64,000 nucleotides of DNA from Alphaproteobacteria bacterium (GTDB lineage Bacteria > Pseudomonadota > Alphaproteobacteria > MPNO01): positions 1,856,001 through 1,920,000 of the forward strand of contig CBDFLJ010000001.1 in NCBI GenBank assembly GCA_965248835.1, given 5' to 3'. The notes beneath the pieces were generated by a model that saw only the letters and a list, made by a program, of their open reading frames with translations, made no database searches and was not told the origin of the DNA. A program made the position numbers and the translations under genes. Positions 30,353 through 63,068 of this stretch are shown one piece after another. Position 1 is the stretch's first letter. Every line of letters begins with the position of its first letter.

Positions 30353-31411
30353 TCAGGCGTTGCCGCGGACCTCTCGGAACCAGCCGAGCTGGTCGTGGAC
30401 CGGCTTGTCGGAGAAGCTGAAGAGGAAGGCGTCGCCGTCGGCCTCGTGGTGGTGGCGGTACCATGCCGGCACGACGAAGGAATCGCGCGGGCCCCATTCG
30501 AAGCTCTCGTCGCCGATCACCGTCCGGCCGGTGCCCTCGACTACCGAGTAGACCCAGGCCGCCGTCGAGCGGTAGGTCTCGGTCGCGAACCCGTCGGGGA
30601 GGAGCTGTATGTAGGTTCCCAGCGTCGGCATCGTCGGCCCGCCGTTGGCCGGGTTGACGTATTGCATCTTGACCCCGTGATAGGGATCGATGTCCTGGGC
30701 CTTGGCGCAGGTCTCCAGCGCCTCGCGGACCTTGGCATAAGGGTAGTGGAAGACCGGCGAGTTCTTCTCGTCCTTCAACGTCGCGCCGAAGGGCAGCATG
30801 TTGGCGCCGTAGCGGTGCTGGTTGTCGCCGGCCGGGTTGCCCGCGGCATTGTAGTCGTCGGGATGCGGCTCGGCGAAGACCGGGCCCATGAAGCGGACCA
30901 TCGGGATGTCGAGCCCGTCGAGCCAGACCACCGGCTCGGTTCCCTCGTGCCCGTGGTCGTGCCAGACCCAGGACGGGGTGAGGATCAGATCGCCGGGTTC
31001 CATATAGGCCTTCTCGCCGTTGATCGCGGTGAACGCGCGGCTGCCCTCGACGATGAAGCGCAGCGCGGCGGGGCTGTGGCGGTGGGTGGCGGCGACCTCG
31101 CCCGGCATGATGAGCTGCAGCCCGGCAAAGAGCGCCTCGGTGATGCAGGCCTTGCCGCGCATCGAGGGGTTCTCGAGGATAAGCACGCGCCGCTCGGCCT
31201 CCTCGGTCGAGATCACCTGGGCCGATTCCATCAGCGCAGGTCGCAGGGCGTCATAGTTCCACAGATACGGCGTCGCCTGGGTCACCGGCTCCTTGGCCAG
31301 GAGCTTGTGCAGCACCTCCCACAACGGCGCGATGTTGTAGGTATCGATGCGGCCGTAATAGTCGGCCCGCGCGTTGGTCATCTCCGGCTTGGACTCCAGC
31401 GCCCTGCTCAT
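30353..31411 (-). CDS. gtdA: Gentisate 1,2-dioxygenase (bicupin)
   Basis: PLW, AERRVLILENP, GLQLIMPGE, HRHSPAALRF, WHDHGHE, WLDGLDIP, NPANGGP. Confidence 0.88.
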   Translation of the reverse strand: MSRALESKPEMTNARADYYGRIDTYNIAPLWEVLHKLLAKEPVTQATPYLWNYDALRPALMESAQVISTEEAERRVLILENPSMRGKACITEALFAGLQLIMPGEVAATHRHSPAALRFIVEGSRAFTAINGEKAYMEPGDLILTPSWVWHDHGHEGTEPVVWLDGLDIPMVRFMGPVFAEPHPDDYNAAGNPAGDNQHRYGANMLPFGATLKDEKNSPVFHYPYAKVREALETCAKAQDIDPYHGVKMQYVNPANGGPTMPTLGTYIQLLPDGFATETYRSTAAWVYSVVEGTGRTVIGDESFEWGPRDSFVVPAWYRHHHEADGDAFLFSFSDKPVHDQLGWFREVRGNA

Positions 31412-31682
31412 CTGCGGTCTCCTGTGGCGCGCCATTCGGCGAAATTGAAGGGTTTGAACCGATCATAGTCCCGTGCCCGACCGGCGTACAGAGCCCGGCC
31501 GTTCAAGGCTTCCCGGGCCGCACGAACGCGATCGGCCCGGGTCATGCCGGCGCTCCGACAAGTTTGCCAAACCCTGTTGGATGTACACAATCAGGGCATG
31601 AAACATTGCCACGGTATCGCGGCCGCTGCGGACGGCCGGGCAGCTTGGTGCGTGCGGACCGCAATGGCCGGGAAGGCCCGCG

Positions 31683-33128
31683 ATGACCGGCCCTGAGAGC
31701 CTGCTGGTGCGCAACGCCCTGGTGGTCACGCTCGATGACCGGAACACGGTGCACGAGGCCGCCGACGTCCTGATCGAGGACGGCGCGATTGCTGCCGTCG
31801 GAGATGTCGAAGCGCCGGCCGGCTGCCGGCTGCTCGATGCGACCGGCAAGCTGCTGGTGCCGGGGTTCGTCAACGCCCACACCCATTCGCCGACGACTCC
31901 GATGCACGGCACCGGGGACCGCCTCAGCCACCCGGCCTATATGTGGCTCAGCCAGGCCCTTACCGCGGGCAAGACGCCGCGCGAGATCTATGTCAGCGCG
32001 ATGCTGGGCTGCATCCAGATGCTGCTGAGCGGAACCACCGCTGCAATCGACCACTTTCCCGGCCAGGCCTGCACGTCCGATGATGTCGCCGCGGCGCTTT
32101 CGGCCTATCGCGATTCCGGCATGCGGGTCGTGCTTGGTCTGAGATTCTATGACGCGGAATTCGGCGACATCGTCCCGCGCGCAGACGCCATCCCGGCCGA
32201 CATCGCGGCGGAGATCGAACGGCTCGACCCGCTTGCGCCGATGAAGCTTGCCGACGTTCGCGCGGTCATGGAGGACGCGATAGCGCGCTGGCACGGCATG
32301 GACGGCCGGCTCGGCGTCTTCCCGGCACCGTCCAATCCAGAACGCTGCTCCGATGAAGCGCTGGTGATGTGCGCACAGATCGCCGACCGCCACGACCTCG
32401 GCATCCACACCCACCTGCTGGAATCCCGCATCCAGGCGGAGAACGCCCGCAGGGCCTATGGCTGCACGATGGTCGAGCACCTCGACCGGCTCGGCCTGCT
32501 CGGCCCGCGCCTGTCGGCCGCCCATGCGATCTGGCTGGAGCCGGCCGATATCGAGCGGCTGGCGGCAAGCGGCGCCGTCGTGGTGCATAATCCGGAGAGC
32601 AACATGAAGATCGGCGCCGGTATCGCGCCGATCCCGGAGTTGGTCGCCCATGGCGCGCGGATCGCGCTGGGGACCGACGGGGCCGGCACCAACGACAACC
32701 TGATCATGCACGAGGCGCTGCGGCTCGCCGCCACGCTCCATCGGCCGAGACAGCACGCGCGCACCGACTGGCTCGGGGCCGAGGACGTGCTTCGGATGGC
32801 GACCCGGGGCGGCGCGGCGGCGCTGATGCAAGCCGACCGCCTTGGGGCGATCGAGGTCGGCAGACGCGCCGATCTGGTGCTCTACCGCCTGGACGCGCCG
32901 TGGTGGGTTCCGCTCAACGAGCCGATTTCCCAGCTCGTGTTCGCCGAGAATGGCAGCTCGGTCGACACGGTGATCGTCGACGGCCGCATCCTGGTCGAAG
33001 ACGGCCGCATCACCGCCTTCGATGCCGGGGCGATCCTGGCCGAGGCGAGGCCGATGATGGCGCAGATCCGCGCGCGCAACGCTGATCTGCACGCGCTGGC
33101 CGGACGCATGGCGGCGCTGTTCCCGTGA
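31683..33128 (+). CDS. Metal-dependent amidohydrolase (deaminase-like)
   Basis: PGFVNAHTH, GTTAAIDH, HTHLLE, AAHAIW, HNPESNMKIGAG, LGTDG. Confidence 0.9.
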   Translation: MTGPESLLVRNALVVTLDDRNTVHEAADVLIEDGAIAAVGDVEAPAGCRLLDATGKLLVPGFVNAHTHSPTTPMHGTGDRLSHPAYMWLSQALTAGKTPREIYVSAMLGCIQMLLSGTTAAIDHFPGQACTSDDVAAALSAYRDSGMRVVLGLRFYDAEFGDIVPRADAIPADIAAEIERLDPLAPMKLADVRAVMEDAIARWHGMDGRLGVFPAPSNPERCSDEALVMCAQIADRHDLGIHTHLLESRIQAENARRAYGCTMVEHLDRLGLLGPRLSAAHAIWLEPADIERLAASGAVVVHNPESNMKIGAGIAPIPELVAHGARIALGTDGAGTNDNLIMHEALRLAATLHRPRQHARTDWLGAEDVLRMATRGGAAALMQADRLGAIEVGRRADLVLYRLDAPWWVPLNEPISQLVFAENGSSVDTVIVDGRILVEDGRITAFDAGAILAEARPMMAQIRARNADLHALAGRMAALFP

Positions 33129-33153
33129 CCGGTCGCCGGACCGTTGCGGGTGT

Positions 33154-34146
33154 TCAGGCGGCTTGTGCGCCCAGGCCGTGATAGGTTTTGAACCACGCGA
33201 CGAATTTCGGCACCCCGACATCGATCGGCGTGGTCGGCTTGTAGCCCAGATCGCGGGCGATGGCCGAGATGTCGGCGTAGGTCTCCTTCACATCGCCGGG
33301 CTGCATCGGCTGGAAGTTGATCTCCGCCTTGCGGCCGAGGCAGGCCTCCAGCACCTCGATCAGCCGCATCAGCGGCTCGCAGCGGTGGTTGCCGATGTTG
33401 TAGAGCTTATGCGGCGGCGCGTCGCCGGCCGGCGGCGGGTTGTCGAGCGCGGCGACCACCCCGGAGACGATGTCGTCGATGAAGGTGAAATCACGCTTCA
33501 TGTCGCCGTTGTTGAAGACCTCGATCGGCCGTCCCTCGGTGATCGCCTTGGTGAAGATGTAAAGCGCCATGTCCGGCCGGCCCCACGGGCCGTAGACGGT
33601 GAAAAAGCGCAGGCCCGTCTGCGGAATGCCGTATAGATGGCTGTAGCAATGGCTCATATGCTCGTTGGCCTTCTTGGTCGCGGCATACAGCGAGATCGGC
33701 GAGTCGGTCCGGTCCTCGACCGAGAAGGGAAGGCTGGTATTGCCGCCATAGACCGAGCTGGAGCTGGCATAGACGAGGTGCGTGAAGTCCGGCAGGTGCC
33801 GGCAAAGCTCCAGGACCACCATATGGCCGGTCAGGTTCGCATCGACATAAGCGAAGGGGTGGTCGAGCGAATGGCGCACCCCGGCCTGGGCCGCGAGATG
33901 GACCACCCGATCAAGCGCGCCGATGCCTTCCATTGCGGCCGTCACCGCCTCGCGGTCGGCCAGGTCGAGCCTGTGGAAGCTGAATCCGGGCAAGCCCTTG
34001 AGCACGTCCAGGCGCGCCTGCTTGAGCCTGACGTCATAATAGTCGCTGATCGCATCGAGACCGACGACGGTCTCGCCGCGCGCCAGCAGGCGCCGGCTGA
34101 CATGGTATCCGATGAAACCGGCCGCGCCGGTAACAAGAACCGTCAT
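33154..34146 (-). CDS. UDP-glucuronate 4-epimerase-like SDR
   Basis: VTGAAGFIG, HLAAQAGVR, ASSSSVYG, YAATKK, RFFTVYGPWGRPDMA, MQPGDV. Confidence 0.92.
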   Translation of the reverse strand: MTVLVTGAAGFIGYHVSRRLLARGETVVGLDAISDYYDVRLKQARLDVLKGLPGFSFHRLDLADREAVTAAMEGIGALDRVVHLAAQAGVRHSLDHPFAYVDANLTGHMVVLELCRHLPDFTHLVYASSSSVYGGNTSLPFSVEDRTDSPISLYAATKKANEHMSHCYSHLYGIPQTGLRFFTVYGPWGRPDMALYIFTKAITEGRPIEVFNNGDMKRDFTFIDDIVSGVVAALDNPPPAGDAPPHKLYNIGNHRCEPLMRLIEVLEACLGRKAEINFQPMQPGDVKETYADISAIARDLGYKPTTPIDVGVPKFVAWFKTYHGLGAQAA

Positions 34147-34267
34147 CGCCTTCGTCCCGTCCTTTAACGGCGCCGCCGGACGGCGCGGCCGCACGCAGGC
34201 TAGCGCATCCTCCGGGAAAATAGAATCGGCGGTGCGCTCAATTCTCTTCGGCCGAGCGGGCGGCCGC

Positions 34268-36661
34268 TCAACGCGCGGCCTCGATCGCCTGAAGGATGCG
34301 CTCGGGCGTGAACGGCTGCACCGAGGCGGTGGCGCCCAGCGGCGCAAGGGCGTCGTTGACGGCAAGCCAGGCGGCCGCGTTGGCCCCGATGGTCCCGGCC
34401 TCGCCGACGCCCTTGGCGCCAAGCACGGTGGACTCTTCCAGCCCCTCGAGATGGGCGGTGACGATGTCGGGCATCTCCGAGGCCATCGGGACGAGATAAT
34501 CGGCCATGGTCGCGTTCAGGAGCTGGCCGTCTTCGTCATACACGCATTCCTCGAAGAACGCCGCGCCCAGACCCTGGACAACACCGCCCCGCAGCTGCTC
34601 ATCGACCAGAAGCGGGTTGATCACCCGGCCGCACTCGTCGACCACCCAGTGGCCGAGCAGCGTGATCTGCCCGGTCTCGGGGTCGAGCTCGAGGTGACAG
34701 CCCTGGGCGCCGTGGGCGACGTAATAGGGGGTCTGGTTGGGCACGTGATGGCGGGTCGCGGCGAGCTCCGGCTGCAGCGCGCCGGGCAGGGTGTCCTGGC
34801 GGAAATGGCCGATCCGCGCGACCTCGGCCAGCGGAATGCGCTCGGTCTCGTCGGCCCGGTCGACCACCGCGCGCCCGACAAGCGCGAGCTTGGCGGGTTC
34901 GGTCTGCAGGATCGGCCCGGCGATGGCCAGGATGTTTTCACGCAACGCCATCGCGGCGGCAAGCGCCGCCTCGCCGCCCATCGCCGTGCCGCGCGACGCC
35001 CAGGCACCGCCGCCGAACGGCGTGACCGCGCTGTCGCCGGAGATGACCTCGACGTCCTCCACCGTGAGGCCGAGCTGATCGGCGACGATCTGGGCGACCG
35101 CGGTCAGCGTCCCCTGGCCTTGATCGGTCAGGCTGGTGATGCAGCGCACCTTGCCCGAGGGCTCGAGCTTCACCGTCGCGCCCTCCTGGGTCGAGACCGG
35201 CGCCTCGGAGGGGCCGTAATAGGCGGGACCGTAGGCGGTCGGCTCGATGAAGGTGGCGACCCCGATGCCGCGGCAGATGCCCCGCGAGGCGGCCTCTTCC
35301 TGCCCGGCGCGCAGGCGCTCGTAGCCCATCACCTCGACCAGCCGGTCGAGCGCGGCGTTGAACGAGATCACCGGCAGGCTCGCGCCGCCGTGGGTCCTGC
35401 GCGGCAGCTCCGATGGCGTGAGGAAATTGCGCCGGCGGAAGGCCACCGGGTCGATGCCGAGCGCGCGCGCCGCCTTGTCGATGAGCTGCTCGGTCACCAC
35501 GCAGGCGATCGGCATGCCCACGCCGCGATACATGCCGACGATCGATTTGTTCACATAGGCCGCACGCATTCGGCCGCGGTAGTGATCGAACCGGTAGGGC
35601 GCGCCGGTGTTGACGATCGCCATCATTCCCTCGGCGATGCCGAAGCGGATATGGGCGGTGAACGGCCCGATCGCCGACAGGTCGTCGATCTCCATCGCGG
35701 CGATGTCGCCCTCGGCGGTGACGGCGATCCGCCCCGTGGCGCTGTGATCGCGGGTGTGAATGTCGTTGCCGAAGGACTCCAGCCGGTCGGCGACGTACTT
35801 GACCGGCCGTGCCAGCAGCTTGGCGATCGCGACCGCTGCTACCTCCTCGCCGTGGACATTGATCTTGAGCCCGAACCCGCCGCCCACGTCGGGACAGATC
35901 ACGCGGATCTTATGGTCGTCAATCCCCAGGAGGCGGGCGTAGACCTCCTGCATCTGGAACGGCGATTGGTGGGATTGATAGACCGTCAGCGATCCATCCG
36001 AGGCCTGGAAGTCGGCGATCAGGTTGCGCGGCTCCAGCGTGACCGCGGTGTGGCGTCCGAAGGTGAAGTCTTGGCTCACCACGGTGTGCGCGCCATCGAA
36101 GGCGGCGTCGGGCGTGCCGGCCTCGATGGTATGGGCGTAAGCGAGGTTGTCGCCGAGCACGGGATGGATGACCGGGCTGCCGGGCGCGAGCGCGGCCTCG
36201 GCATCGTGGACGACCGGCCGCTCCCGCCAGTCGACCATGACCAGCCCGGCCGCGTCCTCGGCGCCGACCCGGGTCTCGGCGACGACCGCGGCCACCGGCT
36301 CGCCCTGCCAATAGGCCGCCTCGATCGCCATCACCGGTTGCGGCGCCGACTTGTGGCCGGGCCGCGCGCCGTGGATCGAGACCATCGGTGCGCAGATCCC
36401 CGCCAGGTCCGTCCCGGTGATCACCCGGACGACCCCCGGCCGCGCGGCCGCCTCCGCCGCGTCGATGCCGACGATTTCCGCATGGGCGTAAGGGCTGCGG
36501 ACGAAGGCGAGGTGCAGCATGCGCGCCAGCACGATGTCGTCGGTATATTGCCCTCTTCCGTGCGCCAACCGCCGCGCGCGGCGGCGCGGCACCGGCTTGC
36601 CGATCTCGCCGCCGGCCAGGACCGGCCCGCCCGCGCCCGCCGTTTCGTTCGCTTGGGTCAT
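34268..36661 (-). CDS. Xanthine dehydrogenase/CoxL-family molybdopterin-binding large subunit (orphan)
   Basis: RSPYAHA, DVGGGFG.K, active-site loop GMYRGVG, GQGT, WASRG, AKGVGE. Confidence 0.9.
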   Translation of the reverse strand: MTQANETAGAGGPVLAGGEIGKPVPRRRARRLAHGRGQYTDDIVLARMLHLAFVRSPYAHAEIVGIDAAEAAARPGVVRVITGTDLAGICAPMVSIHGARPGHKSAPQPVMAIEAAYWQGEPVAAVVAETRVGAEDAAGLVMVDWRERPVVHDAEAALAPGSPVIHPVLGDNLAYAHTIEAGTPDAAFDGAHTVVSQDFTFGRHTAVTLEPRNLIADFQASDGSLTVYQSHQSPFQMQEVYARLLGIDDHKIRVICPDVGGGFGLKINVHGEEVAAVAIAKLLARPVKYVADRLESFGNDIHTRDHSATGRIAVTAEGDIAAMEIDDLSAIGPFTAHIRFGIAEGMMAIVNTGAPYRFDHYRGRMRAAYVNKSIVGMYRGVGMPIACVVTEQLIDKAARALGIDPVAFRRRNFLTPSELPRRTHGGASLPVISFNAALDRLVEVMGYERLRAGQEEAASRGICRGIGVATFIEPTAYGPAYYGPSEAPVSTQEGATVKLEPSGKVRCITSLTDQGQGTLTAVAQIVADQLGLTVEDVEVISGDSAVTPFGGGAWASRGTAMGGEAALAAAMALRENILAIAGPILQTEPAKLALVGRAVVDRADETERIPLAEVARIGHFRQDTLPGALQPELAATRHHVPNQTPYYVAHGAQGCHLELDPETGQITLLGHWVVDECGRVINPLLVDEQLRGGVVQGLGAAFFEECVYDEDGQLLNATMADYLVPMASEMPDIVTAHLEGLEESTVLGAKGVGEAGTIGANAAAWLAVNDALAPLGATASVQPFTPERILQAIEAAR

Positions 36662-36813
36662 GCGGCGCGCATCAAGCCATGGAACGCCGCTGCGCTCAAC
36701 CCGGCCGGGCGCGGGTCCATGCAGCGAATGCGCTTGACGTCTGCGGGTGGATTCATGATGCGGTGTCGTGTTGGATTTGGCAAAGTCCGGGCATGGACTT
36801 CACCGGAGGTGTG

Positions 36814-37641
36814 ATGATGGGCTCGTTGGAGAGCCGTTATGTGACGGCCGCGGGCGTTCGGGTTCACTGCCAGGAGACAGGCTCCGGCGATCCGGTGATC
36901 TGCATCCATGGGGCGGGGCCGGGCGCGAACAGCGCGAGCAATTTCCGCGGCAATATCGATGCACTGGCCGCGCGCTTCCGCGTGGTGCTCTACGACATGC
37001 CGCAGTTCGGCAAGTCGGAGAAGGTCGCGATCACCGGCGGTCGGCTGGCGTTCAATGCGAACGTTCTCGATCAATTCATGGCCGAGACCGGCATCGAGCG
37101 GGCGCATTTCATCGGCAACTCGATGGGCGGGCAGGTCGCGCTCAAGCTGGCGCTCGACCGGCCGGAACGGGTCGACCGGCTGGTGGTTCTGGGCTCTGGC
37201 GCGATCAACAAGGCGGTGTTCACGCCGCTGCCGATCGAGGGCGTGAAGATGATCGGGGCCTATTACAAGGGCGAGGGGCCGACGCGCGAGAAGCTGCGGG
37301 CCCTGTTGGAGACGATCGTCTACGATGCCTCGTTCCTGACCGATGAGGTGCTGGAGGAGCGCTTTGCCGCGAGCACCGAGCCCGAGACGCTGGACCTGTT
37401 CACCAACCGGCAGGGACCCTACCAGAAGGAGGACCTCGGTCCGGACCTCGGGCGGATCGAGGCCGAGACGCTTGTCGTGTGGGGGCTGGACGACCGGTTC
37501 GGGGCGCTCGATGTCGGGCTTCAGATGACCCGTCTGATGCCGCGCTCGCAGATGCATATCTTCTCGCGCTGCGGCCATTGGGCACAGGTCGAGCACGCCC
37601 AGGCGTTCAACCGTCTGGTGATCGGGTTTTTGACCGGCTAA
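36814..37641 (+). CDS. Meta-cleavage-product C-C hydrolase (CarC/BphD/MhpC-like alpha/beta hydrolase)
   Basis: IHGAGPGA, GNSMGG nucleophile, VWGLDDR, CGHWAQVEH. Confidence 0.9.
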   Translation: MMGSLESRYVTAAGVRVHCQETGSGDPVICIHGAGPGANSASNFRGNIDALAARFRVVLYDMPQFGKSEKVAITGGRLAFNANVLDQFMAETGIERAHFIGNSMGGQVALKLALDRPERVDRLVVLGSGAINKAVFTPLPIEGVKMIGAYYKGEGPTREKLRALLETIVYDASFLTDEVLEERFAASTEPETLDLFTNRQGPYQKEDLGPDLGRIEAETLVVWGLDDRFGALDVGLQMTRLMPRSQMHIFSRCGHWAQVEHAQAFNRLVIGFLTG

Positions 37642-37653
37642 GGGGAACGCGGC

Positions 37654-38838
37654 ATGGCGGACGGCGAAGCGGGCCTGAACGAGGGGCTGGACAGCGATCT
37701 CTCGAAGCGGCCGTGGCAGCCCTATCTGGAGGCCGCGCTGGGCTTCCGCAACCACTGGTATCCGGCCTGCTTCTCGCCCGAAGTGGAGGATGGCGGGTTC
37801 CTGGCCGTCGAACTCCTGGGCGAGCGGGTGCTGCTCAAGCGCATCGCCGGCCGGGTGCACGCGATCGAGGACCGCTGCGCACACCGCGGGGTGGCGTTTT
37901 CGGCCCGGCCGGAATGCTTCTCGCTCAACACGGTGAGTTGCTGGTATCACGGCTTCACCTACGACATGCGCGACGGCAGGCTGGTGGCGATCATCACCGA
38001 TCCGGACAGCCCGCTGATCGGCAAGGTGGCGCTCAAGACCTACCCGGTCGAAGAGCGCCAGAACGTGGTCTTCGTCTATGTCGGGGACGACCCGCCCCCG
38101 CCGCTGGTAGAGGACGTCCAGCCGGGATTCCTCGACGAGGACCTCTACGTCGCGCCCAACGGCGAGCGCGGCGTGGTCCGCAGCAACTGGCGCTTGGCGG
38201 CGGAGAACGGGGTCGATGCCTCCCACATCTACATCCACCGCAACTCCCGGCTGTTGAATGCCGGCCGCCGGGCGGTGCCCCTGGCGAGCTATTTCGTCAC
38301 CCGCCAGGACATGGTGGTCGAGACCGAAGGCGGTCCCAAGGGCGTGGTCAAGGGTGCCGGGCGCAAGGTCTCGGTGTGGCAGACCGAGGTCGAGGGAAAT
38401 CCGGTCACGACGCAGTACCTCCCGGAAGACAACCCGGAGGAGACCCTGATCACCGACACCTCGCTGTGGCTGCCCTGCGGGCTGAAGGTCGATCCGTTCC
38501 CGGCCAAGGGGATCGTCCATTTCGAATGGTACGTGCCGATCGACGAGCACTCGCACTATTACATCGTCACTTGGGCCAAGCGGGTCTCCGCACAGGCGGA
38601 GCGCGAGCAGTTCGCGCGCGAGGTGGAGACCTATTGGCGCGATCTCGTGGTCGACCGGTTCAACGACGAGGACGTCTTCGCGCGCGAGGCGATGGAGCGG
38701 TTCTACGCCGAGGAGGACGGCTGGAACCGCGAGCGGCTGTTCCGCCCCGACGTGGTGGTCACCGAGTGGCGCAAGCTCGCCAGCCGGTGCAACCGCGGCA
38801 TCCAGCGCCGCGCGCACCCGCGGCCGCAAGACCGGTGA
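37654..38838 (+). CDS. Homotrimeric Rieske oxygenase, carbazole 1,9a-dioxygenase (CarAa)/2-oxoquinoline 8-monooxygenase (OxoO) type
   Basis: LGFRNHWYP, DRCAHRG..SCWYHG Rieske site, ENGVDASHIYIH, WLP..LKVDPFP, FEWYVPID, FNDEDVFAREAM. Confidence 0.9.
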   Translation: MADGEAGLNEGLDSDLSKRPWQPYLEAALGFRNHWYPACFSPEVEDGGFLAVELLGERVLLKRIAGRVHAIEDRCAHRGVAFSARPECFSLNTVSCWYHGFTYDMRDGRLVAIITDPDSPLIGKVALKTYPVEERQNVVFVYVGDDPPPPLVEDVQPGFLDEDLYVAPNGERGVVRSNWRLAAENGVDASHIYIHRNSRLLNAGRRAVPLASYFVTRQDMVVETEGGPKGVVKGAGRKVSVWQTEVEGNPVTTQYLPEDNPEETLITDTSLWLPCGLKVDPFPAKGIVHFEWYVPIDEHSHYYIVTWAKRVSAQAEREQFAREVETYWRDLVVDRFNDEDVFAREAMERFYAEEDGWNRERLFRPDVVVTEWRKLASRCNRGIQRRAHPRPQDR

Positions 38839-39116
38839 TGGCGCAGCCCCGCCCCGCATCGGCGCGCTATTGGCTCAACCGGGCCCTGTTCGACCTCGGC
38901 CAAGCGGAGCACCGCGCGACCTTCCACGCCGACAAGGAGGGCTATCTGTCCGGCTACCCGCTGGAACCGGGCGCGCGCGCCGCGCTCCTGGGCCCGGACT
39001 GGTCGGCTCTGGTCGCCGCCGGCGCGCTGCCGAATCTGATCTTCAAGTACTATATGCTCCACGGCCACGCGCCGGAGACCTTCCCACAGGCCCTGGAGGC
39101 CGACCGCCATGGCTGA
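38838..39116 (+). CDS. Extradiol dioxygenase small subunit (LigA/CarBa-like)
   Basis: 92 aa: Y.LNRALFDL...F.AD...YL..Y.L....RAALL..DW..L...GA.P; translationally coupled to both neighbours. Confidence 0.8.
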   Translation: MAQPRPASARYWLNRALFDLGQAEHRATFHADKEGYLSGYPLEPGARAALLGPDWSALVAAGALPNLIFKYYMLHGHAPETFPQALEADRHG

Positions 39117-39948
39117 GCTCTGCCTGGGGCTGGCGACGTCCCATCTGGCCCATATCGTCAACGCGCGCGCCCAGGGCGATGCCGACCAGGTGGCGGGCTT
39201 CGATGCCGGCTACGCGCGGCTGGCCGAGGCGTTGCGCGAGGCAGCGCCGGACGTATGCGTGCTGGTGACCGCCGAGCACGTCAACAAGTTCTTTCTCGAC
39301 AACATGCCGGCCTTCTGCATCGGCCTGTTCGACGCCTTCGCAGGCCCCGTCGAGTCCAAGACCCGCGATGTGGGCTATCCCTGGCGGACGGTGCCGAGCG
39401 ATGCCGGTTTCTCCCGCTACCTGATCGAGCGCGGCCTCGACGGCGGGCCGGGCGGCGGCGTCGACTGGACGGTCTCGGAGTTCTGGGAGGCCGATCACGG
39501 GATCATGGTTCCGCTGCACAAGATCGACCCGGAGGGGGCGGTGCCGGTGGTGCCGGTGTTCGTCAACTGCGGGTCCTCCCCGATGCCTTCGGCCCGGCGC
39601 TGCCACGCGGTGGGGCGTTGGCTCGCCGATGCGGTCGCGGATTGGGACGCCGGGAAGCGGGTCGCGATCATGGCCACCGGCGGCCTGTCGCACTCGGTCG
39701 GCTCGCCCACCCAGGGATTTATCGATGCCGCGTTCGACGAATGGTTCCTCGACCAGCTCGCCTGCGGCCGCGACGAGACGCTGGCGGGGTTGACCGATCC
39801 GCAAATGGACGCGGCAGGCAGCTCCACCGGCGAGGTGCGCGCCTGGATCGTGCTGGCGGGCGCCTTCGCCGGCCGCTCCGCCCAACGCGTCTTCTACGCC
39901 CCCATCAAGGGCTTCGACACCGGATGCGCCCAGGCCCTCTACGCGTGA
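39109..39948 (+). CDS. Class III extradiol dioxygenase catalytic subunit (LigB/CarBb-like)
   Basis: ATSH, EHVNKFFLDNMPAFCIG, DHGIMVPL, TGGLSH, FDEWFL, EVRAW. Confidence 0.9.
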   Translation: MAELCLGLATSHLAHIVNARAQGDADQVAGFDAGYARLAEALREAAPDVCVLVTAEHVNKFFLDNMPAFCIGLFDAFAGPVESKTRDVGYPWRTVPSDAGFSRYLIERGLDGGPGGGVDWTVSEFWEADHGIMVPLHKIDPEGAVPVVPVFVNCGSSPMPSARRCHAVGRWLADAVADWDAGKRVAIMATGGLSHSVGSPTQGFIDAAFDEWFLDQLACGRDETLAGLTDPQMDAAGSSTGEVRAWIVLAGAFAGRSAQRVFYAPIKGFDTGCAQALYA

Positions 39949-39961
39949 GGCCGACGACGGC

Positions 39962-40750
39962 ATGCTGATCCTCTATGAGCATTCGTCCTCGGTTTGCGTC
40001 ATCAAGGTGCGGCTGACCCTGCTGGAGAAGTCCATCGACTACGAAGGCCGCTTCGTCGACCTGCGCGGCGGCGGGCAGTTCGATCCGGACTATCTGAAAA
40101 TCCACCCGGGCGCGGTCGTGCCCGCGCTGGTCCATGACGGCAATGCGATCCTCGAATCCTCGGTGATCCAGTATTACCTCGAAGACGTCTTCCCCGACCC
40201 GGCGATGATGCCCGCCGACCCGCTCGCGCGCTACCGGGTGCGCTGGCTGATGAAGCTCATCGACGATCCGATCCACCCGGCCGTCGGCGTCCTTACCCAT
40301 GCCATTTCCTTCAGGAAGGACTACCGGACGCCCCAGGCGATCGAGGATCGAATGGCCAAGATCCCCGATCCCCGCCGCCGGGACCGCCAGCGCTCGGTCT
40401 ACACCGAGGGTCTGGAGAGCCCCTATGTGATCGATGCGCTGCGGGATTTCCAACGGATGGTCGCGGAAATGGACAAGACCCTGGCCGACGGCCCGTGGCT
40501 CGGCGGCCGGCTCTATTCGCTGGCCGATGCCGCAGCGACGCCCTATGCCAACCGCCTCGACATGCTGGGAATTCTGGACGCGTTTCTCGTCGGTCGTCCG
40601 CGGGTCCGGAACTGGTTCGACCGCATCCGCGCCCGCGAAAGCTTCGATCGGGCGGTCACGCGCTGGTACTCGGCCGATGACGCCGACCGCTTCGCCCCCT
40701 TCGCGGCGGACAGCGCCGAGCGGGTCACCAGGATCCTGGCATCGATCTGA
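39962..40750 (+). CDS. Glutathione S-transferase family protein
   Basis: SVCVIKVRL, Q..PDYLKIHP..VVPAL, ESSVI..YL, YSLAD. Confidence 0.9.
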   Translation: MLILYEHSSSVCVIKVRLTLLEKSIDYEGRFVDLRGGGQFDPDYLKIHPGAVVPALVHDGNAILESSVIQYYLEDVFPDPAMMPADPLARYRVRWLMKLIDDPIHPAVGVLTHAISFRKDYRTPQAIEDRMAKIPDPRRRDRQRSVYTEGLESPYVIDALRDFQRMVAEMDKTLADGPWLGGRLYSLADAAATPYANRLDMLGILDAFLVGRPRVRNWFDRIRARESFDRAVTRWYSADDADRFAPFAADSAERVTRILASI

Positions 40751-40957
40751 AGCGCCGGTCAGGCGCGGTCGTCGGCCAAGCACAGCCCGCAGATGCCGCC
40801 GATGAGGTCGGCCACGGCCTTATCGAAATCGGCACGATAGCCGTGAACCTCGTCCAACCACGCCGGACTTTGCATGGACCTGCGCCCGGCTCTTGCGCGG
40901 TCCTTATGAGCGGCCGGCCTCGGTTGCGCGGGTGTGGTGCCGCAACCTGTCGGCGAG

Positions 40958-42124
40958 TCAGGTGCGGGCGAAGAACCGGGCGGCGTTCTGGTGGAGGATT
41001 TTCCGTTTCTGATCCGCCGTGACGTCGGTCCGCCCGATGATCTCGATCGCCGCCTCGTCGCGGCCCTCGCCGTGGGGGAAATCCGAGGAATAGAGGATCT
41101 GGTCCTCGCCGAGCAGCGCCAGCTCCATGGGCAGCATCGCATCGCTCGATTCGGTGGCGAGGTAAAGACGCCCGGATGCGATCGTCTCCTCGACCGCGGT
41201 CCTCGGCAGCATCGACGGATCGGCCATGCGCCTTCGGTTGACCTCCAGGTAATGCCGCATCCGCCCGATCGCGTAGAAAATCCATTCGCCGCCGAATTCC
41301 AGGAACGCGACCCGCAGGTCCGGGTAGCGCTCGAGCATGCCGTGTCCGACGACGGCGACGAAGGCAAGCTGTGCCGGCAGCGCCTTGCCGATCATGTTGG
41401 CGTCCTGGATCGAATGGCAAAGGTCCCCCAGCGGCGGGTAACTCATCCCCATGTGGATGCAAAGCGGCAGGCCAGCCCCGGCAACGGCGTCCCAGACCGG
41501 AGCGAAGGCCCGGTCGGACAGCATCTGCTCGCCGGCGGTGCCGAAGACCACGGCCGCCGAAGCGCCGAGCGTTGTCATCTCCGCGACGGCTTCGATCCCC
41601 TGCCGCGCCTCGCGCAGCGGCAGCAGTCCCGCCCATCTGAGCCGCTCGGAGACCGATCGGCATTGCCCGCCGACATAGCGGTTGTAGGCGCGGAACAGCG
41701 CGGCTTCGAGCCCCGGATCGGACGATATCGCGGCATAGGACGTGCTGGGGAAAAGGACCTGGACGTCGATCCCCATGTTGTCGAGCGCCGCCACCCGCGC
41801 AGCAGGGTCGGACAGATCGACCACGCCGATCGGCTGAGGAATGCCGGAGAAGTCGCCGGCGCGGTCCGGTGTCGCGCCGAATTCCTCCATGGTCATGCCC
41901 GGCGTGTTCGAGGCATGAGTGCCGGGACCGAACGGATGGGGGTCGAGCCGGCCGTCGAGCAGCCAGGCGCTCTGCCAGCCGCCGAGATCGGCGGCATCGC
42001 CGAACCGGACCGGACGCGGCCGCCGGAACCGGTATTCCTCGGGCAGATCGGCCCACATGCGCGGGCTCATCATCACATGGGCATCGGCGTCGTAGACGCG
42101 GTGGCCTTCAAGCATTGTCAGCAC
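40958..42124 (-). CDS. Amidohydrolase_2 family protein
   Basis: YDADAHV, DVQVLFPS, AYNR, LCIH, FLEFG, YSSDFPH, NAARFF. Confidence 0.88.
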   Translation of the reverse strand: MLTMLEGHRVYDADAHVMMSPRMWADLPEEYRFRRPRPVRFGDAADLGGWQSAWLLDGRLDPHPFGPGTHASNTPGMTMEEFGATPDRAGDFSGIPQPIGVVDLSDPAARVAALDNMGIDVQVLFPSTSYAAISSDPGLEAALFRAYNRYVGGQCRSVSERLRWAGLLPLREARQGIEAVAEMTTLGASAAVVFGTAGEQMLSDRAFAPVWDAVAGAGLPLCIHMGMSYPPLGDLCHSIQDANMIGKALPAQLAFVAVVGHGMLERYPDLRVAFLEFGGEWIFYAIGRMRHYLEVNRRRMADPSMLPRTAVEETIASGRLYLATESSDAMLPMELALLGEDQILYSSDFPHGEGRDEAAIEIIGRTDVTADQKRKILHQNAARFFART

Positions 42125-42278
42125 TCTCCGTCGCAGGTTTCATCGCGCTCTCCGGCGTGTCGGGGCTTGTTCCGGTCGAAAAGCCCAAGCCGCCGGATCC
42201 GCAGCCGCAAGGGCTGACCGGGGTCGGAAATTTGATGCTACCATCCCGGGCCTGTCTGATCGCAAGGGTCCGCCGGCC

Positions 42279-43366
42279 ATGAAGTTCGCACATTGCTCGC
42301 ATGTCTGGGGCAAGGCGGGCATGACGCCGGCTGACCGCTACCGGCAGCTCTGGCGCGAGATCGAGCTCTGCGACGAGCTCGGCTACGACTACGGCTTCGC
42401 GGTCGAGCATCATTTCCGGCCCGACGAGAGCTGGATGACGGCGCCCAATTTCTATGCCGTCGCCGCCGGCGCGCGGACCCGCCGGATCCGGCTGGGCGCG
42501 ATGGGCCATATCGTGCCGCTGCACGATCCGGTCAGGCTGGTCGAGGAGATCGCACTGACCGACCAGATGCTGGACGGGCGAATCGAGGTCGGCCTCGTGC
42601 CGGGGATCGTGCCGTCTTATTTCGAGCCTTCAAGGTCGACTACGAGTCCCGCCGCGCCAAGACGATCGAATTCGTGGGTTTTCTCAAGGCGGCGTTCGCC
42701 GATGCCGAACCGTTCGACTTCGCAGGCGAATTCAACAGCTATGAGAACCTGCTGCTCGCCGTGAACCCGGTGCAGAAGCCCCATCCGCCGCTTTGGATGG
42801 AAACCCGCGACCCGGCGACGCTGGCGTTCTGCGCCCGCGAGGGCGTGAACACCGGCTATTTCCTGCTGTTCCCGCGCGCCGACGCGGCGCCGCGCTACAA
42901 GACCTTCCTCGCCGACTGGCGGGCGGCGGGCTGGCAGGAACCGCCGCTGATCGCCTATTCGACGGTGGTCTATGTCGACGAGACCGACGAGAAGGCGCTT
43001 CAGACCGCGCTGAGCGAGGCCGGGCGGGCCTATCGCGGGTTCTTCCCGCCCGAGGTCGGCGGCGGCGACATGGCCAGGGCCCAGCTCGTGACCGCCGAAC
43101 TGTTCGAGCAGCGCGGCGAGCCCGGCGCGGCCGAGGTGATCCGCAACCTGCTCGATCCCGATTATCTCCTGGAGCACGACCTGATCCTTATCGGCTCGCC
43201 CGAGACGGTTGCGCGCAGGCTGCGAGACTACGCCAGCGATGGGATGTTCAACACCTTCTTCGGCGAGTTCAACTTCGGCGATCTCGCCGAGGAGGACCTG
43301 ATGCGCTCGATCCGCCTGTTCGGCACCGAGGTGATGCCGGCCCTGCGCGATTTCGAGCCCTTCTGA
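42279..43366 (+). pseudogene. LLM-class (luciferase-like) flavin monooxygenase split by a 1-bp deletion near 42628
   Basis: VEHHF, P.RLVEEIA..DQM.DGRIEVG in the first frame; P.QKPHPPLW, IGSPETV, LFGTEVMP in the second; adding one base at GAG CC^TTC AAG restores a single ORF. Confidence 0.8.
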
Positions 43367-43867
43367 GAACGAAGCTTTGAGGCCTGCGCGGCGGCGGGAG
43401 CTGGTCGACGATCTCCGGCGGACCTGGCAGGTGAGCATCCGGCGTGCCTGTGCGGTGCTGAAGGTGGGCCGGTCGATGTGCCACTACACGCCCCGTCGCC
43501 CGTCGCAGGCCGTCTTGCGCAGGCGTATCCAGGAGATCGCGGAGACCCGTGTCCGCTACGGGTATCGCCGGATCCATGTGTTCTGCAGCGCGCGGGCTGG
43601 CGGGCGAACGCCAAGCGGGTCTACCGCCTGTACACCGAGGAAGGCCTTCAGCTGCGCAACAAGACACCGAAACGGAAGGTCTTGGCGAAGCTTCGTGAAG
43701 ACCGGTGTCCGGCCGCGGCGCCGAACGAGGTGTGGGCGATGGACTTCATGTCGGACCAGCTGTTCGACGGCCGGCGCGTCCGCATCCTGACCATTGTCGA
43801 TGCCTTCTGCCGGCTGTCGCCGGTGATCGACGTCCGCCAGCGCATGCTGACGTCCTCACCCGCCTGA
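43367..43867 (+). mobile_element. IS3-family remnant (end of orfA plus truncated, frameshifted orfB)
   Basis: RPARRRELV, SIRRAC, RYGYRRIH, GWRANAKRVYRLY.EEGL, NEVWAMDFMSDQL, RILTIVD; DDE incomplete, no IRs seen. Confidence 0.85.
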
Positions 43868-46321: not shown

Positions 46322-47115
46322 GCTCTGGACCCATAAAAGCGCTTTATGATTCTGTTTGGATCTGATTCAAGCTTCCAAACCGTGGGAGCTTGAGGATGTC
46401 GGAGAGCTTTTGGCTGAGCGATGAGCAGTTTGGACGTCTGGCGCCGTTGTTGCCGACGGACACGCGCGGCGTGCCGCGGGTTGACGACCGGCGGGTGATA
46501 TCTGGGATCATCCATGTTCTTCAATCGGGCTGCCGGTGGAAGGATGCGCCGGCGGAATACGGCCCTCACAAGATGCTGTACAACCGCTTTGTCCGCTGGG
46601 CGCGCAAGGGTGTATGGCAGGGCGTCTTCGTGCGGTTGGCGGATTCTGGCGGACCGCCGTCGGCGGTGATGCTGGATTCGACCCATGTCAAGGCGCACCG
46701 TTCGGCGGCGGGCGGAAAAGGGGGGCCGCGCTCCAGGCGATCGGCCGTTCGCGGGGCGGGCGCACGACCAAGATCCATGCCGCCGTCGACGAGCACGGCC
46801 GGGCGCGACGGCTGATCGTCGGGGCGGGCCATCGCGGCGACGCACCGATGGCGGCGCGCCTGATCGGTGCCATGGCCGCCCGGCTTGTGTATCGCCGATG
46901 CCGCCTACGACAGCGACGCGCTCCGCGACCTGCTTCTCGACCGGGGCACCATCCCGGTTATCCCCAACAATCCGACCCGCAAACGGCATCACCCGTTCGA
47001 TCGTCAGGCCTACCGCCTGCGCAACGTCATCGAACGTGCCTTCGCCCGGCTCAAGGACTGGCGCCGGATCGCCACCCGATACGACAAACTCGCCCTGACC
47101 TACACCGCCGCCGTC
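46321..47115 (+). mobile_element. IS5-family (IS427-type, two-ORF) element, right end lost
   Basis: TA|GGCTCTGGACCCATAAA left end; orfA FWLSDEQF..GVPRVDDRRV..W.DAP; AAAAGGGGGG slippery site near 46717; orfB SRGG.TTKIH, AD.AYDSD, RNVIER.F..LK.WRRIATRYDK; extra frameshift near 46875. Confidence 0.88.
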
Positions 47116-47177: not shown

Positions 47178-48359
47178 TCACCTGGAACTGAAGTAAATTG
47201 CACTATATGATGGCCATCGTCGTTGGGCTTTGGAGGTGTTTGCGATGGTGCGTGGCGTTGGCCGGCCGGTTGCGGCTTTGGTTCTGAGCGATGAAGAACG
47301 GTCGTATCTCGAGCGTCAGCTCCGCCGTCGCCAGATCGCGCGCGCGGTGTCGGACCGCTGCCGCATGATCCTGCGTTGCGCGGCTGGTCTGACCAACAAG
47401 GCGGTCGCTGCCGAGCTCGGCGTGCACGAGCACACGGTCGGCAAGTGGCGCCGCCGCTTCCTGAAGGACCGCATCGACGGACTGTCGGATGAGCCTCGGC
47501 CGGGGCGGCCGCGGACCATCGAGGATGATCAAGTGGCACAGGTCATTGAACGGACGCTCAACGCGACGCCGGCGGATGCGACCCATTGGTCGCTCCGCTC
47601 GATGGCCCGGGAGACCGGGCTGTCGCACACGACGATCCGGCGCATCTGGACGGCCTTCGGGTTGCAGCCGCACCGCTCGCAGACCTTCAAACTGTCGAGC
47701 GATCCGCTGTTCGTCGACAAGGTCCGCGACATCGTCGGGCTCTATCTGTCGCCGCCGGACCGCGCGCTGGTGCTCTGTGTCGATGAAAAGAGCCAGATCC
47801 AGGCCCTCGACCGCGAACAGCCGGTGTTGCCGATGATGCCGGGCATGGCCGAGCGGCGGACGTACAATTACGTCCGGCACGGGACGACCTCGCTGTTCGC
47901 CGCCCTCGATGTCGCCACGGGCTTCGTCATCGGCAAGTGCTACAGGCGCCACCGGGCCAGGGAGTTCCTCGACTTTCTGAAGCAGATCGACGCCCGCGTC
48001 CCCGAGGATCTCGACATCCACATCGTCATGGACAACTACGCCACCCACAAGACCGCCGCGATCAGAGCCTGGCTGGCGCGGCGGCCGCACTATCATGTCC
48101 ACTTCACGCCGACCTCGGCCTCCTGGATCAACCAGGTCGAGCGCTGGTTCGCCGAATTGACGCGCAAGCAACTGCGACGTGGCGTTCATACCTCGACGAA
48201 GCAGCTCGAAGCCGACATCCGCGCCTTCATCGAAAAACACAACGAAGACCCCAAGCCCTTCAAATGGACCAAATCAGCCGACGACATCCTCGCCGCCGTC
48301 AAACGCTTCTGCCTCCGCGTCGATCAAAACTTATGCCACCAACTTTAGATTCGGGTGAC
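47177..48359 (+). mobile_element. IS630-family element, apparently complete
   Basis: Imperfect IRs GTCACCTGGAACTGAAG / CTTTAGATTCGGGTGAC, TA on both sides (47175-76, 48360-61). Confidence 0.93.
47245..48348 (+). CDS. IS630 transposase
   Basis: KWRRRF, RPGRPR, THWS.R, VDEKSQIQAL, YVRHGT, MDNYATHK, SWINQVERWF; intact ORF. Confidence 0.96.
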   Translation: MVRGVGRPVAALVLSDEERSYLERQLRRRQIARAVSDRCRMILRCAAGLTNKAVAAELGVHEHTVGKWRRRFLKDRIDGLSDEPRPGRPRTIEDDQVAQVIERTLNATPADATHWSLRSMARETGLSHTTIRRIWTAFGLQPHRSQTFKLSSDPLFVDKVRDIVGLYLSPPDRALVLCVDEKSQIQALDREQPVLPMMPGMAERRTYNYVRHGTTSLFAALDVATGFVIGKCYRRHRAREFLDFLKQIDARVPEDLDIHIVMDNYATHKTAAIRAWLARRPHYHVHFTPTSASWINQVERWFAELTRKQLRRGVHTSTKQLEADIRAFIEKHNEDPKPFKWTKSADDILAAVKRFCLRVDQNLCHQL

Positions 48360-61859: not shown

Positions 61860-63068
61860 GTGAGCACAAACGCACCGCCCAAGACCAACGTCCATGCCAT
61901 AACGGGGTTGCCGGAGCTGGGCTTTCGCAATTACTGGTACCCCGCCCTCGCGGCGTGGCGGCTGCGACGGCGGCCAAGGACAGTCAAGCTGCTTGGCGAG
62001 GACGTGGTGCTGTTTCGCGACAAGGGGGTGGTTTACGCGCTGAAGGACCAGTGTGCGCACCGCGGCGCGCGACTGTCGCAAGGAAAATGCCTTTATCCGG
62101 GCACTGGTACGCTCACCTGTCCCTACCACGGCTGGACCTACGCGGGAGAAACGGGGCAGTGCATCGCCAAGCTCATGGAAGGACCCGACGCCACCATCTC
62201 CAGCGAGGCGAAAGTAAAAACCTATCCGGTCCGCGAACATCGCGGGGTGATCTGGCTGTTCGTTGGCGATATGGACGCGGTGCCACTTGAAGAAGACTTG
62301 CCGGAATGCTTGACCAAGACCGATGAATGGCACACGATTTCCACTTGGCGGACATATCACTGCAATTGGCGTGTCCTGAATGACAATTTGTGCTACGACT
62401 TGCACGCGCCCTTCCTGCATAGAAACTCACCCGAACTGGTTTTCCAGCCGATCTTCCCTTTCGCCAGCCAAATCACGACGGCGCCGCTGGAGGATTCCAA
62501 GGGGCTCGGCTACACGGCGCGCAACGGCGTAACGGAAGCCTACTTTCCCCGCCTGGGGCGTTTCCCGCCGCCCCAAGAGGCATTTTGGCGCAAGCTGAAA
62601 CCTCGCGGGCGCGGTAAGGAAATGGATCCAGAGACATCGCAGGCAGCAAAACGGCACGGCATCAAATACCGGCACATGTCACGCCTGCCGGCGGTGACCT
62701 TGGTGGGCCGGCCGGCCGGAGATTATTTCATGTGCCGCTGGGTAACGCCGATCGACGCGGAGACGACGTTGTTTTACTCATTGAACGCGTTCCGCCGGCG
62801 CCATGCCTTGGCTACCTTGTTCGATCGTATAGGCTGGGCGCTATGGCAATCCTGGGCCCATGACTGGGTGTTCTCGGACCAGGACAGGAAAGTCGTCGAG
62901 GGCGTGCGTGCGGATGCCGAACAGCTGTCGCGCAGCGATATCGGCGTTGTCGCTTGGCGAAAATTCATGATGGAAAACGCGCGCCGTCCCCCTGCTGCCG
63001 ATGATGCAGGTGATAGCGAAACAACCGCGATCGTGAAAAGCGCGCGGCTGGGAACTGCCGCGGAATAG
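61860..63068 (+). CDS. Rieske oxygenase alpha subunit, divergent CarAa/OxoO-like
   Basis: LGFRNYWYP, DQCAHRG..TCPYHGW, NW....DN...DLHAPFLH, RWVTPID, FSDQD; GTG start after AGGAGG. Confidence 0.9.
   Translation: MSTNAPPKTNVHAITGLPELGFRNYWYPALAAWRLRRRPRTVKLLGEDVVLFRDKGVVYALKDQCAHRGARLSQGKCLYPGTGTLTCPYHGWTYAGETGQCIAKLMEGPDATISSEAKVKTYPVREHRGVIWLFVGDMDAVPLEEDLPECLTKTDEWHTISTWRTYHCNWRVLNDNLCYDLHAPFLHRNSPELVFQPIFPFASQITTAPLEDSKGLGYTARNGVTEAYFPRLGRFPPPQEAFWRKLKPRGRGKEMDPETSQAAKRHGIKYRHMSRLPAVTLVGRPAGDYFMCRWVTPIDAETTLFYSLNAFRRRHALATLFDRIGWALWQSWAHDWVFSDQDRKVVEGVRADAEQLSRSDIGVVAWRKFMMENARRPPAADDAGDSETTAIVKSARLGTAAE

Follow-up and report, generated by a model that had tools for sequence, protein, structure and literature searches.

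We analysed a 64,000-nucleotide window (the whole stretch of DNA under study, with ~68% G+C) of the alphaproteobacterial genome G000, in which the gene for the large subunit of a molybdenum (Mo) hydroxylase stands back to back with an operon resembling the car operons of carbazole degradation. An earlier note on this DNA had proposed that the two may form a single hybrid pathway, with Mo hydroxylation and Rieske oxygenation directed at a fused N-heterocycle or halogenated alkaloid other than carbazole or quinoline. If true, this would be a new way of degrading N-heterocycles, but the comparative evidence was against it.

Gene content and coupling at the locus

All six genes that the note had placed here were recovered by Pfam searches of the open reading frames (ORFs) of the window, each where it had been put (Table 1). 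Five of them, encoding in order a hydrolase, a CarAa-family oxygenase, a LigA and a LigB subunit, and a glutathione S-transferase (GST), had been described as a tightly coupled operon. This description held, since the successive gaps are 12, -1, -8, and 13 bp and Pfam domains confirmed each gene. LigA starts at an ATG that overlaps the CarAa stop codon as TGATG, and the start of LigB overlaps the stop codon of LigA. The longest ORF for the hydrolase begins at position 36679; translation probably starts at the ATG at 36814, which is preceded by GGAGG and aligned with the start of the gene in two congeners. With the start taken there, the spacer to the Mo gene is 152 bp long, in agreement with the divergent region of roughly 150 bp reported previously. 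No regulator gene adjoins this spacer.

With its CarAa-family oxygenase, two-subunit LigAB-type dioxygenase, and meta-cleavage hydrolase, plus the GST, the operon is indeed a reordered car-like unit, as the note had it. Like the carAaBaBbC operons of Pseudomonas resinovorans pCAR1 and Novosphingobium sp. KA1 pCAR3, it encodes the same three enzyme types and no dihydrodiol dehydrogenase, and, as in pCAR3, the electron-transfer genes are not all within the operon. It differs from both in that it begins with the hydrolase gene, has no ferredoxin gene, and ends with an appended GST gene.

Table 1. Positions of the features discussed, in window coordinates unless a locus is named
Feature	Position	Strand	Details
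Mo-hydroxylase large subunit (xanthine oxidase/CoxL family)	34268-36661	-	797 aa; Ald_Xan_dh_C, MoCoBD_1, MoCoBD_2 (Pfam)
Divergent spacer between Mo gene and hydrolase gene	36662-36813		152 bp
Meta-cleavage-product C-C bond hydrolase, alpha/beta fold, operon gene 1	36814-37641	+	275 aa; Abhydrolase_1 (Pfam)
CarAa/OxoO-family homotrimer-type Rieske non-haem iron oxygenase	37654-38838	+	394 aa; Rieske and Aromatic_hydrox, 227.6 bits (Pfam)
LigA-like small subunit of extradiol dioxygenase (CarBa-like)	38838-39116	+	92 aa; LigA (Pfam)
LigB-family catalytic subunit, class III extradiol dioxygenase (CarBb-like)	39109-39948	+	279 aa; LigB, 111 bits (Pfam)
GST, last operon gene	39962-40750	+	262 aa; GST_N and GST_C_2 (Pfam)
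NAD-dependent epimerase/dehydratase-type short-chain dehydrogenase/reductase (SDR), downstream of Mo gene	33154-34146	-	Epimerase (Pfam)
Gentisate 1,2-dioxygenase	30353-31435	-	NCBIfam TIGR02272, 485.7 bits, above the equivalog cut-off of 442.1
Seven-gene CoxS/MoL-T/TPP operon	L002:12300-20348	-	One location; operon type also in L017 and L018

Linkage of the Mo gene and the operon among relatives

The Mo protein contains a hammerhead domain and two MoCo-binding domains (Pfam) and a conserved GAKGVGE column, the Glu of which we take to be the catalytic residue. None of the NCBIfam models was matched at its cut-off. Assignment as a form I or form II CoxL was rejected, because the corresponding loop reads GMYRGVGMPI, which is neither of the two motifs.

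The quinoline pathway of Pseudomonas putida 86 pairs QorMSL with OxoO/OxoR, and the window resembles it in that a Mo large subunit adjoins an oxygenase of the OxoO/CarAa family, with QorL and OxoO among the solved relatives of the two proteins. By analogy with the action of Qor and OxoO on quinoline, the hybrid pathway of this genus would have the orphan Mo subunit borrow Fe-S and FAD subunits encoded elsewhere and hydroxylate an N-heteroaromatic compound next to the nitrogen, with the CarAa-like oxygenase, the LigAB dioxygenase, the hydrolase, and the GST to follow. The presence of the Glu column, the membership of OxoO in the same oxygenase family, and the divergent arrangement across a 152-bp spacer, which was also found in a second genome (G001), speak for such a pathway. 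The Mo protein, moreover, had QorL as its best solved relative, but barely so (430 bits, versus 418 bits for a CoxL), and in this respect the protein matched QorL no better than it matched CoxL-like proteins. The window oxygenase, for its part, was nearer to CarAa (362 to 380 bits) than to OxoO (263 bits). No Fe-S (Fer2_2) or FAD (FAD_binding_5) partner of the Mo enzyme was found in the window and, unlike in the quinoline pathway, no equivalent of QorS or QorM lies within 54 kb of the Mo gene.

The absence of partner subunits is common in this genome. The 75 MoCoBD_1 matches in G000 were merged into 73 large-subunit genes, which amounts to one per 67 kb of the 4.89-Mb genome, versus only 24 matches to Fer2_2 and 23 to FAD_binding_5. 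Forty-eight of the 73 large-subunit genes have no Fer2_2 match within 5 kb, and the gene in the window, for which the nearest such match is 53,992 bp away, is among them; it thus encodes an orphan large subunit, like 47 others. Large numbers of Mo genes are also not peculiar to G000, since the number of first-look large-subunit candidates ranged from 23 to 96 per genome across the 61 that were searched (G000 and 60 relatives). With 73 Mo genes in the genome, some must adjoin catabolic operons, and adjacency of a Mo gene and an operon alone thus carries little weight.

Fourteen genomes of the same family, G002, G005, G010, and G015 among them, have a Mo orthologue at 72 to 87% identity, and orthologues at 58 to 62% identity were present in G006 and in two other families. 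When stretches of ~20 kb around 16 Mo orthologues (58 to 87% identity) were searched with the window proteins, neither the hydrolase nor CarAa was found in any of the 16, and a single locus (L094 of G002) gave a weak LigB-family match (37%) beyond the SDR. The gene that did recur was that of the SDR/epimerase, which follows the Mo gene in the same orientation in 10 of the 16 loci. In G005 (L095:8832-13372), the genes for the Mo subunit, the SDR, and a gentisate dioxygenase (85% identical to that of the window) follow one another on one strand as an apparent operon, and in a further genus (g6) the divergent neighbour of the Mo gene encodes an EamA transporter and not a hydrolase. Judged by gene order, it is the SDR gene that has stayed with the Mo gene as its conserved partner. 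In the window, the SDR gene and the gentisate dioxygenase gene are separated by an amidohydrolase gene on the opposite strand (31683-33128).

The operon has its own, different distribution. CarAa orthologues (E ≤ 1e-60) were present in 14 of the 61 genomes. Besides G000 itself, these are 11 of the 19 family members and both genomes of a second family, and none of the 39 remaining genomes gave a match. No CarAa match at this threshold was obtained in G002, G005, G010, or G015, all of which have the Mo orthologue. Linkage was then scored from the operon side in genome and metagenome loci in which the hydrolase gene immediately precedes CarAa and no less than 1 kb of sequence is available upstream (33 loci, or about 30 distinct ones, as three pairs resemble the same contig). 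A divergent Mo gene within 3 kb was found in none of the 33, which is the outcome (homologous operons never carrying the Mo subunit) that the note had itself named as telling against its proposal. One locus, L140, has a co-directional Mo paralogue (32% identical) that ends 1.6 kb upstream of the operon. In complete relatives with both units, the two are separated by distances of 43 kb to over 1 Mb or lie on separate contigs, and their juxtaposition was seen only in G000 and G001, members of one genus.

Alignments within this genus gave some indication of the history of the juxtaposition. The G001 locus (L001), the contig of which begins inside the Mo gene, aligned with window positions 36247-40726 at 84.6% nucleotide identity and has both the juxtaposition and the GST in common with the window. 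Conversely, when 60 kb around the Mo orthologue of G002 (100% complete, same genus) was compared with the window, matches of at least 300 bp were confined to window positions 33133-34179 and 34259-36942; G002 retains the SDR and Mo genes and the spacer, together with ~125 bp of the hydrolase gene, after which the sequences diverge. Together, these alignments indicate that the juxtaposition was already present in the ancestor of the genus and that one descendant lost the operon and kept the Mo-SDR block. The hydrolase 5' stub of G002, which stands beside the Mo gene (L094:11199-11519, ~125 bp homologous), resembles a scar of operon loss.

From the distribution and synteny of the two units, we consider it probable that two independent units lie back to back in the window, namely, a car-like operon and a Mo-SDR unit that was placed there by rearrangement, with no shared pathway implied. 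The position of the Mo gene beside the operon would have arisen by rearrangement in this genus, and the second unit would comprise the Mo large subunit, an orphan of a 73-copy family, and the downstream SDR, joined in G005 by the gentisate dioxygenase. The Mo gene of the window is most likely next to the operon by accident and not as a pathway partner. By the same evidence (an orphan Mo gene that is 1 of 73, with the SDR as its conserved partner; no linkage in 16 orthologues or 33 operons; and a Mo gene kept without the operon in G002), the functional coupling of Mo hydroxylation to Rieske oxygenation is quite unlikely.

Several observations weigh against the reading of two independent units. 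Another member of the genus, G001 (L001), retains both the adjacency and the 152-bp spacer, from which it follows that the arrangement has persisted for some time, and divergent genes across such a spacer could share regulation. The chance that a Mo gene is the immediate neighbour of one given operon is estimated at only ~3% (73 Mo genes over an assumed ~4,600 genes). In addition, orthologous operons of one alphaproteobacterial genus and of Chloroflexota are linked to a CoxS/CoxL-type Mo enzyme different from that of the window, and the contig end of L017 holds a Mo fragment that is 49% identical to the C terminus of the window's own Mo protein.

The spacer is conserved in both G001 and G002. 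It contains one weak sigma-70-like match on the minus strand and two imperfect inverted repeats, and a wider scan of positions 33000-42300 for sigma-70 promoters and terminators was uninformative, with 2 promoter-like sites (0.7 expected) and 4 terminator-like sites (3.2 expected). A sigma-54-like motif picked out in the spacer by eye was dropped, as it was not conserved in G001 or G002. A search for sequencing runs yielded entries of one study, with no RNA set listed among them.

Insertion sequence remnants were found 3' of the operon at 43478-43867 (an rve fragment), 46390-46815 (DUF4096), and 47230-48348 (a DDE_3 transposase). A luciferase-like monooxygenase is spread over two overlapping frames (42279-42764 and 42674-43366) and is possibly a frameshifted pseudogene. 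The remnants and the split gene downstream of the operon are consistent with a rearrangement-prone region.

The oxygenase, the ring-cleavage enzymes, and the electron supply

The best matches of the window oxygenase among solved structures were three carbazole 1,9a-dioxygenase terminal oxygenases (380, 376, and 362 bits), and all of the Rieske and His-His-Asp ligands are kept (C69, H71, C90, H93, H183, H187, and D333, equivalent to the pCAR1 numbering minus 6). Since the operon also encodes the same three enzymatic steps, it might be a plain upper-pathway operon in a new gene order that converts carbazole to anthranilate and 2-hydroxypenta-2,4-dienoate; according to bioRxiv 10.1101/2020.03.30.015693, carbazole dioxygenase is also promiscuous. 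The sequence comparisons with the pCAR1 and pCAR3 car loci, which were fetched as references, did not favour this. The oxygenase is 44.6% identical to CarAa of pCAR1 and 48.6% identical to CarAa of pCAR3, while these two characterised enzymes share 60.8%. It differs from CarAa at five aligned positions (F204S, A205Y, A259I, I262T, and Q282H), one of which, I262T, is present in 18 of 18 close relatives, and it keeps G178, L202, L270, V272, F275, E284, F329, and N330. The compared positions are ones that we take, from the CarAa structures, to line the carbazole pocket; on this assumption, the pocket residues are not fully conserved.

A scan of one genome per species yielded 79 CarAa-type loci, and a quick maximum-likelihood tree of 81 rows was built; the actinobacterial CarAa that was the top structure match (PDB 3gcf) and OxoO are not on this tree. 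The window oxygenase and that of L001 (89% identical) fell in a 16-row clade with a support of 100 that consists only of alphaproteobacterial sequences from metagenome-assembled genomes (MAGs), with Defluviicoccus, Rhodospirillaceae, and Stellaceae as the labels of its members. Sister to this clade are two Chloroflexota sequences, and CarAa of pCAR1 and pCAR3 sit in a separate 22-row clade. There was no characterised enzyme among the members of the window's clade on this tree, from which PDB 3gcf and OxoO are absent. By the tree and the alignments, the oxygenase is a distinct branch of the carbazole-dioxygenase family, one that was found in many MAGs and metagenome contigs of Alphaproteobacteria as well as Chloroflexota. 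The titles and abstract openings of the papers returned by full-text literature searches yielded no description of this CarAa clade, of a CarAa-Mo linkage, or of the expansion of Mo paralogues.

The remaining enzymes of the operon were more distant from their car counterparts, and overall identities to the pCAR1 and pCAR3 proteins ranged from 30 to 49%. The hydrolase retains the GNSMG nucleophile elbow as well as the Asp and His columns, and it was closer to BphD and MhpC (~219 bits each) than to CarC (structure 1j1i, 105 bits); it is 30% identical to CarC of pCAR1 and 32% identical to that of pCAR3, versus 60% between the latter two. The corresponding values for LigA and CarBa were 32% (pCAR1) and 35% (pCAR3), versus 39% between the two plasmids. 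LigB is just 31% identical to CarBb of either plasmid, versus 43% between the two, but it keeps the His/His/Glu columns that it has in common with CarBb. Its closest solved relative was the beta chain of protocatechuate 4,5-dioxygenase (82 bits), and the class III extradiol families of NCBIfam were all matched below their cut-offs.

The gene order hydrolase-CarAa-LigA-LigB recurs as a core in many related loci of alphaproteobacterial MAGs and metagenomes, whereas the GST does not. Conservation of the GST linkage, which the note had proposed to check, was not borne out, as, among the related loci compared, only L001 (80% identical) shares with the window a GST gene placed after LigB. The closest solved relative of the protein was the beta-etherase LigF (4xt0; 77.8 bits over the full length), and none of the NCBIfam GST models was matched at its cut-off. 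Identification as a zeta-class maleylpyruvate isomerase was rejected, since the maiA match covered only the N-terminal half and scored 70 bits against a cut-off of 171. Meta-cleavage operons of the bph type are known to contain a GST gene (bphK), and the operon of the window has in common with these operons and with LigF of Sphingobium SYK-6 a terminal GST in a ring-cleavage operon, a BphD/MhpC-like hydrolase, and a LigF-like GST. The resemblance does not extend to the oxygenase, which is not of the biphenyl alpha/beta type, and the LigF match is a weak one.

On these identities, the operon is a translationally coupled unit that would work like the upper pathway of carbazole or biphenyl degradation. 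The alpha3-type CarAa-family oxygenase would yield a catecholic intermediate directly, in keeping with the absence of a dihydrodiol dehydrogenase gene from the operon; the two-subunit LigA/LigB-type extradiol dioxygenase would open the catecholic ring; and the BphD/MhpC-like serine hydrolase would cleave the C-C bond of the ring-fission product. The LigF-like GST appears to have been added to the operon in this genus. The substrate is probably a biaryl or heteroaryl compound and not carbazole itself. Thus, the part of the earlier proposal that placed the substrate outside carbazole is plausible, given that the oxygenase lies outside the clade holding CarAa of pCAR1 and pCAR3, whereas the part that tied it to a Mo-coupled N-heterocycle hybrid was not supported. 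A plain carbazole operon is very unlikely, in view of the identities, the five altered positions, the separate and well-supported MAG-only clade, and the affinities of the hydrolase and LigB, together with the absence of ferredoxin, reductase, and two-subunit anthranilate-dioxygenase genes among the ORFs of at least 130 aa in the window (Pfam).

Because Pfam scans of these ORFs revealed no ferredoxin or reductase gene in the window, the electrons for the oxygenase would have to be supplied in trans, from elsewhere in the genome. At a related locus (L002), a gene for a BenC/AntC-type reductase (Fer2-FAD-NAD) is located 2.3 kb upstream of the operon. The G000 orthologue of this reductase (66% identical) is encoded at C1:1511393-1512409, ~380 kb from the operon, where it directly follows a CarAa paralogue (~40% identical; both genes at C1:1510206-1512410, equivalent to L191:7206-9410) in a two-component arrangement like that of OxoO/OxoR. 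By its orthology, this reductase would be the best candidate electron donor for the window oxygenase. Car operons without a reductase gene are on record, and that of pCAR3 is without carAd (bioRxiv 10.1101/2020.03.30.015693).

Mo enzymes near related operons elsewhere

In the genus g6 (with L112 as one of the loci), the hydrolase-CarAa-LigA-LigB genes are directly followed by a convergent operon of seven genes, encoding a CoxS protein, a CoxL-type Mo large subunit designated MoL-T, a solute-binding protein, the two subunits of a thiamine pyrophosphate (TPP) enzyme (TPP_N and TPP_C), and the permease and ATPase of an ABC transporter. The closest resemblance of the TPP subunits is to sulfopyruvate or phosphonopyruvate decarboxylase, with scores below the cut-offs. 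On Chloroflexota contigs (L159, L161, and L162 among them), genes for the hydrolase, a Mo subunit, TPP_N, CarAa, LigB, and TPP_C are interleaved with short or overlapping gaps, and, of 17 related metagenome loci with a length of at least 10 kb, 7 have split-TPP genes no more than 10 kb away. This linkage does not involve the window's own Mo gene; MoL-T is 34% identical to the Mo protein of the window, and the Chloroflexota Mo subunit is 36% identical to MoL-T and 28 to 29% identical to the window protein. Because the association recurs in two phyla, pathways of this type may include a Mo enzyme together with a decarboxylase of keto acids, with the reservation that loci of one genus are not independent and that these lineages are rich in Mo paralogues. 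In this sense, the idea that Mo enzymes accompany such pathways failed for the Mo gene of the window but found some support in the different CoxS/CoxL proteins near orthologous operons; judged from gene order, Mo enzymes may take part in this pathway type elsewhere.

G000 itself has the whole seven-gene operon (C1:1643069-1651168, equivalent to L190:7069-15168) at 73 to 84% identity. The car-like operon of the window might therefore cooperate with it in a pathway split over two loci, for example, by conversion of an alpha-keto acid to an aldehyde that is then oxidised by the Mo enzyme. The convergent arrangement in g6, the interleaving in Chloroflexota, and the frequency of split-TPP genes near related metagenome loci are all consistent with such cooperation. 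The two loci are, however, ~242 kb apart in G000; four long loci (L005, L007, L117, and L141) have neither TPP nor Mo genes; some proximity is expected in lineages with so many Mo paralogues; and the chemistry is conjectural. We therefore regard a two-locus pathway as possible, though doubtful, and keep to two independent units as the reading of the window. Somewhat more speculatively still, hydrolase-CarAa-LigA-LigB together with CoxS/CoxL and a split sulfopyruvate-decarboxylase-like TPP enzyme might make up an undescribed aromatic route, one that would be widespread in uncultured Alphaproteobacteria and Chloroflexota. In such a route, decarboxylation of a keto-acid product would give an aldehyde for oxidation by the Mo enzyme, in place of the usual hydratase-aldolase steps, and the orphan Mo subunit of the window could have been newly recruited.

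A second Rieske oxygenase is encoded near the end of the window (61860-63068, plus strand; 402 aa), with a weak match to Aromatic_hydrox and a match to Ring_hydroxyl_A. Its surroundings consist of TRAP transporter, amidase, and Amidohydro_2 genes.

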